Below are positions 2,000 through 15,983 of a DNA stretch of 16,366 nt, one piece after another. Each line of letters opens with the position of its first letter. Position 1 is the first letter of the stretch. Source of the stretch: Octopus sinensis (Eukaryota). The position numbers and the translations under genes are program-made. Location: the NCBI RefSeq assembly GCF_006345805.1, contig NW_021825183.1, positions 1 to 16,366 on the forward strand. Reading direction: 5' to 3'. The notes below the pieces were generated by a model. That model did no database searches. It saw only the letters and a list, made by a program, of their open reading frames with translations, and was not told the origin of the DNA.

Positions 2000-2340
2000 T
2001 CACAGCTTATTTTACTGGGTATGATGGAAAGTGTTAAGCTGCCTAAGGTGACTCTTGTTTACTGGTAATGTTCACAGAACTCTGCGAAGAATTCTTGAAG
2101 TCCAAGCAATGCTGATTTTTGTAGGTGTTCCTTTTTTACATTTACACCAATCTTTTTTAACCATGTTGGTAGTTGAGTGCTGATACTTCCATGTGCGCCA
2201 ATTACTATTGGTACAACGTCTACCCTCTTCAATGACCACAATCTTCGTGTTTCCCACTTCAAATCGTCGTTGTTGTTCAGATTTTCTTCTTTCTCTTAAA
2301 TTCTGTTGTCACCGGTACATGCTATGTCGATTTATCATGC
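2000..2340 (-). mobile_element. R4/Dong-like non-LTR retrotransposon 3' fragment (RLE endonuclease C-terminus plus 3' UTR), degenerate
   Basis: IDIACTGDNRI*EKEE...DDLKWETRRLWSLKRVDVVPIVIGAHGSI...LQKSALLG/TSRILRRVL matches the R4-clade C-terminus (VPIVIGALG...LQKxALLGTARILRxVL). Lies between (TTA)n tracts. Confidence 0.85.
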
Positions 2341-2368
2341 ATTATTATTATTATTATTATTATTATTA

Positions 2369-2448
<80 letters not shown>

Positions 2449-2455
2449 TTATTAT
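2341..2455. repeat. (TTA)n microsatellite
   Basis: Directly visible. Confidence 0.97.
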
Positions 2456-2930
2456 TCAGTAGTTTTATTTTTATAGCGTGCTTTCACTTCACTACCGAGC
2501 GCAGCTCTATGTGCCTTAGTATGTGCTGTGATTTGTTGTGATGCTCTGATGGTTATTGTATGGAAAGTGTTCTGCGTAGGATGTTGCAGTGCCTAGTAGT
2601 GCAATTTTCTGTATGTTATATGTGTTGTAAGTCTGGTGTTTTGGTTATGTATTTGTCTGAATATTTTTTTATCATGCCTAATGCACCTACTATGATAGGA
2701 ATTGTTTCTGTTTTTAGACTCCACATTCTAGTTACCTCCATTTCCAGGTCTTTGTATTTTGAGAGTTTCTCCATTTCTTTTAGAGACACGTTGTCATCTG
2801 CCGGTATTGATACATCAATTAGAGAGCATTTTTTTTCTTCATGATCTCTGACAACTATATCTGGTCTGTTGGCCTTAATTTCTCTATCTGTGTGTATCGG
2901 CATATCCCTGAGTATGGTTGCTTTCTCGTT
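2456..2930 (-). mobile_element. R4/Dong-like non-LTR retrotransposon, 5'-truncated copy (RLE domain plus 3' UTR) in (TAA)n
   Basis: ORF 2616-2903 contains IHTDREIKANRPDIVVRD...CSLIDVSIP...EKLSKYKDL...IPIIVGALG (PD..D/K RLE motif), continuing after frameshifts as IQKIALLGTA..LRRTLSIQ*. A ~100-nt 3' UTR runs directly into (TAA)n, with (TAA)n on both sides. Confidence 0.92.
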
Positions 2931-7180: not shown

Positions 7181-7398
7181 TCTCTTTTACTCTTTTACTC
7201 TTTTACTTGTTTCAGTCATTTGACTGCAGCCATGCTGGAGCACCGCCTTTAGTCGAGCAAATCGACCCGGGACTTATTCTTTGTAAGCCCAGTACTTATT
7301 CTATCGGCCTCTTTTGCCGAACCGCTAGGTGACTGGGACGTAAACACACCAGCATCGGTTGTCAAGCAAATGCTAGGGGGACAAACACAGTCACACAA

Positions 7399-7431
<33 letters not shown>

Positions 7432-7580
7432 CATATATACGACAGGCTTCTTTCAGTTTCCGTCCACCAAATCCACTCACAAAGCATTGGTCGGCCCGGG
7501 GCTATAGCCGAAGACACTTGCCCAAGATGCCACGCAGTTGGACTGAACCCGGAACCATGTGGTTGGTTAGGAAGCTACTT
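7181..7580 (-). mobile_element. tRNA-derived SINE family B, main body (5' head displaced to 9469-9506)
   Basis: Reverse complement of the copies at 13753 and 15590: B box (ggactgaacc, 7540-7549), internal TA/CA microsatellite and (AAAAGAGT)n tail at 7181-7206. Confidence 0.93.
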
Positions 7581-7753
7581 TATTTCAAAACATTTGCCAT
7601 AAAGGCAGTACACAGATTAAGTTAGCTTTGCGGGCTGGACGAGGACATTAATGAGGTGAATGATAATGAAAGAAAGATGATAAGGATGGGAGAAGACAAA
7701 AAGCGCCCGCCGACTTTCGCTTCTCTAAAACATTGTTCTTTTTAAAGATAAAC

Positions 7754-7877
7754 ACAAAACGAGGTATTAACCTCTTACAATTTTTCCATTTTTGGACTTA
7801 GCAGTCCATTATTAATACAAAACGAGGTATTAATCCTCTTACAATTTTTCATTTTTGGACTTAAGTCCATTACTAAT
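7754..7877. repeat. Two-copy tandem repeat of about 62 bp in the element's 3' UTR
   Basis: acaaaacgaggtattaa(t)cctcttacaatttttc(c)atttttggactta(gc)agtccatta(t/c)taat at 7754-7816 and 7817-7877. Confidence 0.95.
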
Positions 7878-9111
7878 AATACATATCGTCCTCGAAATAG
7901 CTTGTGCACGCGCCCTCCACCATCACCACGCCTCCCTCAGAACGTAATCAAGTTCCGAGTTCGCGTCGCCCGGGACCAAGTTAAATCTTCATTGAGCTCC
8001 TTTAGCCCAAGCGTCACGTCGAACGCCACGCCTCCACAGCTACCTGCGAGGCCATTCGGGGTCCTGTGTGAAGACTAAAGGTGCCCCTTGTAGTGCTCTT
8101 CCATCACTTTTTCAATTTCTCCTCCTCTATAGAAGAGGACCAATACGTTCAGTTCTTTCGTTGGCGGCACAGTTCCCGCCAACGGTATTCCTTCTCTTGT
8201 CGGTGGCACAACCCCAACCGACGTAGTTCCGGGACATTCCGGTGCTACACTGACAGCCGGTAATGTCCCGTTTTTCTTCCTCTTTTTCTTTTTTTTCCCT
8301 TTTCAACTGAGGGAGGGTGCGTCTCCTCCGTGGCTGGAAGATTCGCCTTCCTCTCCTCATCCCTATTATCCTTTGGTGAGCACCCATTGTTGCTCACCTT
8401 CCTCTTTCGGCCTCTGTTTGAGGAGTCCTCTGCTTCTCGGCCGTTATCGTTCCCTCTTCTAGAGGGGTTTTACTTAACTGTTCCGGGATCCTATTTTGTT
8501 CCCGAGGACAGTTCTTCTTTATGTGGCCGGACTCCAAGCGCCGATGACACTTAGGGGGGCGACCCTCAAGCATCACCGGGTACCTGCACCCGGCCATTTT
8601 CAAAAAATCTGGAAGAACCAGATTGGCTGATTGGGTCCACAGGGTCAAATTACTTTTGACCCAACCCAAGCAGCCGCAGGAAGAACTTTTACATTGAGGA
8701 GCTTAGTTTCGCTGTCACCCAGACCCCGGCGGATAGTCTCCTCTATCCACTCGGGTTCTATGTCGGTGCAAAATCCGCAAATCCAAGCTTTCACATCAAT
8801 TTCTTTTTTTTGTACGTGGGCAGGAATAAGATTTCCTTACCCTCCAGGGTTTGCTAGCAAATTTGCAAGCCTCTTCAGGGGTGTCAAATAGCACCCACAC
8901 CGTTTGCAATATTTGACACCCCTGGAAATGAATTTAATTGTTGGCAAATACTCTTCCAACTCCTCCTCATTGCCGTCTTTTCGAATAGGGCGATGGTGTC
9001 GAGTGCCTTGGAGTAGGTTCTCAACACCACCGTCCTATCTTCACGGTCTTTTAACCACTTTTTAGGTGGTATGATTTCCCACTCCAAAATTTTGTTATTT
9101 TTCATTGCCAT
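7873..9111 (-). pseudogene. Frameshifted LINE ORF1-like protein (about 400 aa): RRM-like region, CCHC knuckle, basic/charged tail
   Basis: Stitched frames: DRTVVLRTYSK...EELEEYLPTIKFISRGVKY / TVWVLFDTPEEACKFASK / LEGKEILFLPTY / VKAWICGFCTDIEPEWIEETI... / LPDFLKMAGCRYPVMLEGRPPKCHRRLESGHIKKNCP (knuckle 8508-8549, second Cys is CGC instead of TGC) ...YFEDDMYY* ending at 7873. Confidence 0.7.
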
Positions 9112-9468
9112 GTTTTTTCTAAAATATATTCAAATTAAACTCAAAAAGCAGGAAGAAAAAAGTAAAAAACGGTAATTTTAACAGTAACTGTATTGAATTT
9201 CGAGGATACGCCCCTCCACTGTTTTTTCTTTTTTTTTCAATGAACACAAAAACGGCAGCCGCCGAGAGCAGGCGAAATTGTCTCAGAGTTGGACACAACT
9301 TACTGAAATAATAATTGGCACGCAATAAATTATGCCCAACTCACAATAAACAAAATCACTTACCTCGACAACTTTCCGTTTTTGGTCTTTTTTCTTTAAT
9401 TGGACGGAGCTGGTTGATTCTCGTCCACTCTGGCTGAACAGGAAGCAACTGACTAACTGCGCATGTGC

Positions 9469-9506
9469 GTTAGCAAGCTACTTACCACACAGCCACTCCT
9501 GCGCCT
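9469..9506 (-). mobile_element. 5' head (A box) of the SINE B copy at 7181-7580
   Basis: Minus strand reads aggcgcaggagtggctgtgtggtaagtagcttgctaac, matching the uninterrupted head at 15590-15630; A-box-like TGGCTGTGTGG at 9485-9495. Confidence 0.92.
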
Positions 9507-13429: not shown

Positions 13430-13668
13430 TCTTACTTTATTATTTGCTTCAGTCATTAGACTGTGGCCATGCTGGGGCACTGTCTTTAAGAATATCTAGT
13501 CGAAGGAATTGACCTCAGTACTTATTTGTTTTTTGCTAATTTTTTCTTTAGTATAGTAATTGTTCGATCGGACTCTTTTGCCGAACCGATATGTTATAGG
13601 GACGTAACACACCAACACCGGTTGTGAAATGGTGGTGTGAGTAAACACACATACACACGCACAGACTT

Positions 13669-13705
<37 letters not shown>

Positions 13706-13730
13706 TATATATGCGACAGGCTTCTTTTAT
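13430..13730 (-). mobile_element. SINE family B, diverged 3' half
   Basis: ttcagtcattagactgtggccatgctgg...ctcttttgccgaaccg...(CA)n...cgacaggcttcttt, homologous to 7205-7455. Confidence 0.88.
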
Positions 13731-13752: not shown

Positions 13753-13875
13753 ACCACATGGTTCTTGGTTCAGTCCCACTGCGTGGCACCTTCGGCAAAT
13801 GTCTTCTACTATAGCCTCGGGCCGACCAAAGCCCTGTGAGTGGATTTGGTAGAAGGAAACTGAAAGAAGCCCGTC

Positions 13876-13946
<71 letters not shown>

Positions 13947-14184
13947 TGTGTGTGTGGGTGTATAATGTTTCTGTCTGTGTTTGTCCCCCCAGCATCGCTT
14001 GACAACCGATGCTGGTGTGTTTACGTCCCCGTAACTTAGCGGTTCGGCAAAAGAGACCGATAGAATAAGTACTTGGCTTCCAAACAATAAGGCCTGGTGT
14101 CCATTTGTTCGACTAAAGGCGGTGCTCCAGCATGGCTGCAGTGAAATGACTGAAGCAAATAAAAGAGAAAAGAGAAAGAGTAAA
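13753..14184 (+). mobile_element. SINE family B lacking the A box
   Basis: accacatggttcttggttcagtccc...internal (TA)n...aaatgactgaagcaaataaaagagaaaagag tail. Confidence 0.93.
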
Positions 14185-15590: not shown

Positions 15591-15983
15591 GACTGTGTGG
15601 TAAGTAGCTTGCTTCCCAACCACATGGTTCCGGGTTCAGCCCCACTGGGTGGCACCTTGGGCAAGGGTCTTCTGCTATAGCCTCGGGTCGACCAAGGCCT
15701 TGTGAGTGTATTTCATAGATGGAAACTGAAAGAAGCCCGTCGTATATGTGTGTGTGTGTGTCTGTGTGTATGTTTGGGTGTCTGGGTCTGTCTCCCCACC
15801 ATAGTTTGACAACCGATGTTGGTGTATTTACTTCCCCGTAAATTATCTGTTCGACACAAGCGACCGATAGTATAAGTACTAGGCTTACAAAGAATAAGTC
15901 CTGGGGTCGATTTGTTCGAGTAAAGACGGTACTCCAGCATGGCCACAGTCAAATGACTGAAACACGTAAAAGAATGAAAGAAT
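15590..15983 (+). mobile_element. SINE family B, near full length
   Basis: tgactgtgtggtaagtagcttgc (A box), gggttcagcccc (B box), internal (TG)n and aaaagaatgaaagaat tail. Confidence 0.93.

Follow-up and report, generated by a model that had tools for sequence, protein, structure and literature searches.

The window, that is the whole stretch of 16,366 nt analysed here (Octopus sinensis, contig NW_021825183.1), contains on its minus strand an insert of 1888 bp, enclosed between 15-nt direct repeats (7566-7580 and 9469-9483) identical at 14 of 15 positions. Insert, imperfect repeat, frameshifted ORF, zinc knuckle and absence of ORF2, all described in a first-pass annotation of the sequence, were reproduced at the same positions. 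The annotation did not mention that the insert splits a SINE-like repeat in two. The features are listed below, in the direction of the element.

9484..9505 (-): host SINE-like repeat, 5' head fragment with an A-box-like motif, severed from the body by the insertion
9469..9483 (-): target repeat, 5' copy, 15 nt; in many copies of the element its distal half tracks the element lineage
9112..9468 (-): 5' leader, type A, 357 nt; at least three leader types are known on the ORF1 of the family
near 9364 (-): splice-donor-like AG/GTAAGT within the leader
7873..9111 (-): ORF1, frameshifted in this copy, with ATG at 9111 and stop ending at 7873
8508..8549 (-): CCHC zinc knuckle, with Arg in place of the second Cys in the window copy
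7754-7878 (-): 63-bp tandem duplication of the 3' UTR
7581..7872 (-): 3' UTR, 292 nt, with no ORF2 present
7581..7616 (-): terminal stretch of about 36 nt, common to autonomous LINEs, with a TGCC-N5-GGCA hairpin at 7595-7607
7579-7584 (-): AATAAA, last two bases supplied by the target repeat
7566..7580 (-): target repeat, 3' copy, corresponding to the insertion site in the SINE head
7182..7565 (-): host SINE-like repeat, body, with a B-box-like motif and a central TA/TG microsatellite
7182-7207 (-): tail of 8-bp repeats of the SINE-like repeat

A 337-bp leader segment (near 9167), found whole or in part in 29 of 29 other loci, is missing from the window copy only. The leader length of about 360 nt initially reported is therefore right for the window, but reflects a private deletion and is atypical of the family. 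Similarly, the AATAAA described as terminal straddles the junction between element and target. Relative to an intact copy (L018), the window copy carries 44 substitutions over 1894 aligned bases, plus 25 indel events, chiefly of 1-2 nt; some of these differences may be long-read assembly errors on the 16-kb contig.

A genome search performed with the insert, in which 40 of 3116 candidates were scored, detected copies 94-97% identical to it. All 30 fetched loci share the same 3' terminal base and the same target, and in none of the 30 is the 3' end followed by a poly(A) tail. The typical copy is about 2.25 kb long, and an unbroken ORF1 of 412-414 aa is retained by four of the 30. A further search was based on the ORF1 protein alone, using a divergent member as query; of 8476 candidates, 150 were scored and the best 30 retrieved. 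The initial annotation had allowed that other copies might continue into ORF2; at none of these 30 loci is an ORF2 found in the 1.5 kb past ORF1. The usual 3' junction was reached within 1.5 kb at 21 of them (18 by pattern, plus three more), the remaining nine being interrupted, truncated or unclear, with no 3' junction in that interval. The insert is a copy of a young family of ORF1-only retroelements and not a one-off deletion of ORF2; of the two alternatives originally proposed, the one in which the unit moved as such is favoured.

At least three unrelated leaders are joined to the same ORF. Many unrelated leaders open with GCGCATGCGC-like and CTTCCG/CTTCCT motifs (9455-9468 in the window, and at other 5' ends), which we take to be NRF1- and ETS-type promoter motifs, and a splice-donor-like site is located about 90-130 nt into many of them. 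These patterns suggest that promoters may be swapped and that a leader intron may be kept by the copies. Several copies look mosaic by eye, combining the N-terminal half of one family with the C-terminal half of another.

The exact 34-nt 3' end of the family occurs 144 times in the genome, and in 139 cases it runs into the target (AAAGTA next); three of the five exceptions were fetched and contain the same target with one base changed. A looser junction pattern produced 760 matches, versus 0 for the reversed control. Exact empty sites, i.e. uninterrupted SINE heads, number 59,306, so that filled sites are in the order of 1%, both counts being lower bounds. The family is site-specific: its members lie at a fixed point within the head of an abundant SINE-like repeat. 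This is the main feature overlooked at first reading. The first 100 junctions (C1 and part of C2), classified on the last 1.5 kb before the junction, comprise 64 with ORF1 and without ORF2, 15 with ORF2, 13 short and non-coding, and 8 with no hit.

The target repeat is about 420 bp long, non-coding and present in very high copy number, and it ends in a tail of 8-bp repeats. A- and B-box-like motifs were recognized by eye in the repeat; no tRNA was called by ARAGORN (8 loci) or Rfam (one empty copy), and a tRNA origin of the head was not confirmed. Further insert-free copies or fragments are located in the window at 13753-14114 (-), 15602-15919 (+) and 13555-13727 (+).

Full-length elements of about 5.45 kb, which contain ORF1, APE, RT and zf-RVT, also occupy the insertion site in the SINE head and show the 15-nt target repeat as well; 70 of the 76 exact 3' ends of this autonomous LINE lie at the SINE site. 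The mean pairwise distance is 1.7% among autonomous copies (n=9) versus 2.2% among ORF1-only copies (n=30), and this similar divergence indicates that their periods of activity coincided. Pfam domains of the autonomous ORF2 are Exo_endo_phos, RVT_1 and zf-RVT; compared with PDB, its best match is L1 ORF2p (E 5e-57), with R2 at 1e-20, while no named Tx1 sequences were returned among its relatives. We provisionally place the element in the Tx1 clade by its architecture, its target specificity and what we take to be a likeness of motifs, rather than by an RT phylogeny. Two features of that clade, a type I ORF1 (RRM + CCHC) and a target preference, are present, type I ORF1s of non-mammalian animals having been linked to Tx1 (PMC5203782).

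Similarity between autonomous and ORF1-only elements is limited to the last 27-39 nt (14 UTRs compared). Within it, 88 of 100 junctions have a TGCC arm 5 nt ahead of GGCA, the loops between the arms being of 18 kinds, although the junction search pattern had left the TGCC arm unfixed. Stringent LINE/SINE pairs are described as characterised by a conserved 3' stem-loop (PMC3747384). The autonomous partner with a common 3' end that the first-pass annotation had proposed to look for thus exists, the last 36 nt or so being shared. The full-length L1/Tx1-type LINE at this site is likely the helper of the ORF1-only family. Several autonomous families share the SINE site, each being a candidate helper; further, more diverged ORF2-bearing families (L069, L076, L087, L101) also end there and carry this hairpin.

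Homologous ORF1s and an identical 3' tip in both classes might reflect loss of ORF2 from the autonomous LINE by internal deletion, one-off or recurrent, without any replicating ORF1-only lineage. However, the helper ORF1 is only 27% identical to that of the window family, over 196 residues, so that the sampled autonomous family is not a recent parent. The ORF1-only families group together as a clade (support 100/100) at the end of a long branch, with dS up to about 1.9 and dN about 0.2; this, together with the low ORF1 identity, indicates an old lineage and not a fresh deletion. In addition, ORF1-only families of the window's lineage have in common a 3' UTR block of about 160 nt, absent from autonomous LINEs, and ORF2 is missing from the next 1.5 kb at all 30 protein-picked loci mentioned above. 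Deletion alone is therefore considered very improbable.

A second ORF1-only lineage, 1.45 kb long, was found at the same SINE site in 20 fetched loci (L193-L212, e.g. L195 and L207), with 590 candidates at a first look. Its ORF1 is about 28% identical to that of the window family and 31-44% to that of the helper. The best tree separates the two ORF1-only lineages, but neither a single clade (p-AU 0.144) nor a clade of the window's lineage plus helpers (p-AU 0.129) is rejected. Two separate origins were considered and not retained as established, because these alternatives fit the data too.

Since nearly every copy is flanked by SINE on both sides, the insert might have been gained once by a single SINE, and the composite then copied by the partner LINE of the SINE itself. 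This would fit the 5' repeat, which is partly inherited with the element, and the lower divergence of occupied SINEs, which are 7.1% apart versus 13.5% for 37 empty ones. We read the latter difference as a preference for intact targets, although partial hitch-hiking predicts the same. Against such a composite, the 125 bp of SINE past the insert are 7.1% apart among the 30 loci, three times more than the inserts, and distances of flank and element are uncorrelated (Mantel r -0.20). A single leader type (A) is hosted by two SINE subfamilies (12 young, 7 old, 1 tie), and unrelated families, the autonomous LINE included, are found at the same site. Inserts truncated at the 5' end, of many lengths, are also present: 12 of 15 short ones (41-511 bp) follow the SINE head with a repeat of 6-15 nt, as judged by eye. 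The occurrence of 5'-truncated inserts at the same point is the test used for SINEU (PMC4494074). Finally, units are stacked in tandem with no SINE heads between them, as with three ORF1-only units head to tail in L031 and an autonomous element followed by a family copy in L188; in another stack, the second ORF1-only lineage is followed by the helper. The truncations, the stacking and the greater divergence of the SINE flanks speak for insertions made independently; a single composite is largely refuted, and we give it only a slight chance. One locus (L098:600-700) shows two element 3' ends, inverted and 53 bp apart, with SINE on both sides.

The direct repeat initially described as a TSD is real at both ends, but part of its 5' copy travels with the element. 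The 5' and 3' repeats are identical in 20 of 65 full-length copies, and about three more differ only by boundary placement. In leader type C, 6 of 10 copies share one shortened 5' repeat, while their 3' copies correspond to five different sequences. Older families carry a different version of the 5' repeat, matching the older SINEs they occupy. Older ORF1-only families (loci L221, L222, L229, L230, L233, L237 and L242) have AAGAAGCTTGCTTCC at the 5' end, and their host SINEs a like variant; this variant possibly tracks the turnover of SINE subfamilies. The simplest reading of the carried repeat is that target-like bases at the 5' end of the RNA may anneal at the 5' junction.

In intact relatives, ORF1 is predicted to be composed of an RRM (residues 15-102), a second RRM (103-185), a CCHC knuckle (187-202), a basic linker and a C-terminal part of about 95 aa. 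Pfam detected zf-CCHC only, below its cut-off. The fold of the first 205 residues was predicted with pLDDT 91.8 from a 74-sequence alignment (32 with 17 close sequences), and it matches tandem-RRM proteins (Foldseek E 3e-5); the first domain aligns with the La RRM (Z 9.3, rmsd 2.6, 80 residues), the second, RRM-like, scores Z about 7-8. The RRM-like and CCHC features recognized at first reading are thus recovered as two predicted RRMs and one knuckle, by which ORF1 is classified as type I, unlike mammalian L1 ORF1 (types according to PMC5203782 and PMC4120745). In PDB sequence searches the single protein found nothing useful and the profile matched knuckles only. The Atlas lead for a ZCCHC3-type RRM family scored 0.91; profile comparison with a fish protein carrying such domains matched the knuckle alone. 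For the C-terminal part there was no Atlas match above 0.81.

The ratio dN/dS, proposed as a check by the first-pass annotation, ranges between 0.09 and 0.39 in 21 of 21 ORF1-only pairs, some of them with dS above 1 (171 codons of the RRM region; pairs hand-picked and not independent, transition bias uncorrected), and it is 0.57 in one autonomous pair. These codon comparisons show the signature of purifying selection on ORF1. Taken with the common 3' base, the missing ORF2 and the 3'-sharing partner, they support the non-autonomous ORF1-only family postulated at the outset.

The source names of related proteins include Octopus and Argonauta. One relative (P0002) figures in the annotation as an uncharacterised gene, under three protein accessions, which would fit processed pseudogenes of a host RRM-CCHC gene. 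The homology of ORF1, however, is to the ORF1 of an APE-RT element. Fixed target, missing poly(A) tail, LINE-like 3' tip and many divergent families also disagree with a pseudogene origin, and no single-copy, intron-containing parent gene with mollusc orthologues was found among the related proteins; we regard this origin as hardly credible. In an annotated Gypsy-like protein with an rve domain, about 46 residues match the N-terminus of ORF1 at 83% identity (P0003, L056); gene prediction probably ran across an insertion here and produced a fused model.

At a probability of about 0.87, we propose that the ORF1-only family at this fixed SINE-head position is copied by the endonuclease and reverse transcriptase of an L1/Tx1-type LINE. 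The start of the RNA would coincide with the 15-nt target repeat or lie slightly upstream of it, so that target-like bases would form its 5' end. The ORF1 protein of the element would package its own RNA in cis, which would explain selection on ORF1. The helper ORF2p would recognise the 3' hairpin, make nicks staggered by about 15 nt in the SINE head, and start reverse transcription there in a target-primed manner. The end of the cDNA would then anneal to the upstream overhang, so that the 5' repeat would often be the donor's version. Each insertion would restore the site on its 3' side, leading to head-to-tail stacks.

The ORF1-only protein could also serve the LINE in trans, in packaging, nuclear entry or targeting, as TART needs HeT-A Gag for telomere targeting (PMC5537684). 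The long life of many families under purifying selection and their 64:15 excess over ORF2-bearing junctions would agree with such a partnership. The autonomous LINE, however, has an intact ORF1 of its own, cis packaging suffices to explain selection, and target choice of Tx1-type elements is credited mainly to the endonuclease (PMC4494074); the partnership appears unlikely, though less so than the deletion or composite-SINE readings. With less confidence than in copying by the LINE itself, though as a fair possibility, a long-lived three-tier system may be envisaged, in which a SINE is the landing pad of an L1/Tx1-type LINE and protein-coding ORF1-only satellites outnumber this LINE about 4:1. 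The satellites would have originated repeatedly, exchange promoters and halves of the ORF, follow the turnover of SINE subfamilies and keep ORF1 as a specialised tool, either to capture the helper ORF2p or to serve the helper in the manner of HeT-A.

None of the runs on record as RNA contains the element. In three runs guessed to be RNA, contigs cover 29-30 of 30 element bins, while the tables of joints were swamped by the SINE; one contig crosses the donor-like site of the leader unspliced, and no splices are present among the joints listed, a further 609 lying outside that list. Runs labelled as three other organisms contain 40-47% of the words of the element, by word match alone.

L1 and its derivatives have a poly(A) tail and dispersed insertions. 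The window family resembles HAL1, a mammalian non-autonomous LINE derivative encoding ORF1p only (PMC5753468), in that it encodes ORF1 alone and is amplified as a family of its own, as indicated by its 144 exact 3' ends and by selection. It differs from HAL1 in having two predicted RRMs and a CCHC knuckle, instead of the Transposase_22 coiled-coil/RRM/CTD arrangement (PMC5203782), and in its missing poly(A) tail, single fixed target, 3' hairpin shared with the helper and invertebrate host. The term HAL1-like used at first is therefore apt as an analogy, but does not extend to ORF1 type, 3' tail or helper, which is not a mammalian L1. HeT-A of Drosophila, which occurs with TART/TAHRE, is likewise gag-only, non-autonomous and targeted, forms head-to-tail arrays and has a gag under negative selection (PMC5537684). 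The window family has these features in common with HeT-A. Unlike HeT-A, which is appended to chromosome ends and fulfils a host function, it enters a dispersed repeat at an internal, staggered cut, its copies being located inside chromosome-scale contigs, in SINE heads; moreover, L1 ORF2p is the solved structure nearest to the ORF2 of its helper. By analogy the family would work like HAL1 and HeT-A, yet it belongs to neither.

Among Tx1 elements, Tx1L in Tx1D, Keno, Kibi, Koshi and Tx1-Mar are sequence-specific for multicopy targets, including transposons, and the non-autonomous SINEU uses the same target as Tx1-Mar, often in tandem (PMC4494074). Sequence-specific insertion into a multicopy repeat, in tandem, is common to these and to the window family, whereas SINEU is non-coding and the window family codes for ORF1. 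The targets named in the accessible text of that source are DNA transposons, LTR elements, snRNA and 5S genes, satellites and microsatellites, with no SINE head among them. The SIDEs of R2 and R1 are also non-autonomous and site-specific and keep a 3' end recognised by the helper, but they are short, target 28S rDNA and use a ribozyme, and no retained ORF is described for them in the portion available (PMC3414825).

No description of the family was found in the literature searched, which included parts of PMC8967140, PMC11203168 and PMC8869645, and lay outside Repbase and most subscription papers. It may be present in the supplement libraries of PMC13282606 or PMC8967140, under an automatic label such as L1-Tx1; the available text of an Octopus vulgaris repeat paper reports 13 recently active L1-Tx1 families, with no mention there of targets or ORF1.

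ORF1-only LINE derivatives have been described from mammals (HAL1) and Drosophila telomeres (HeT-A). The mollusc elements are sequence-specific, more numerous than their likely helper, and would rely on a short 3' tail that both have in common. They raise the question of why a non-autonomous element keeps coding for ORF1 when SINEs do without. In this system, young intact copies of both helper and dependant are available, together with one target site amenable to assay. A SINE head joins the list of targets of site-specific LINEs, and about 36 nt become a minimal candidate signal for ORF2p recognition, along with a candidate site-specific APE endonuclease. Copies of such elements may be annotated as uncharacterised host genes, as in the case of P0002.

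Elsewhere in the window, at 2059-2930 (-), two fragments each adjoin (ATT)n tracts. Pfam gave no confirming hit for them; they presumably resemble the C-terminal, restriction-like endonuclease region of LINEs of the R4/Dong/NeSL type.
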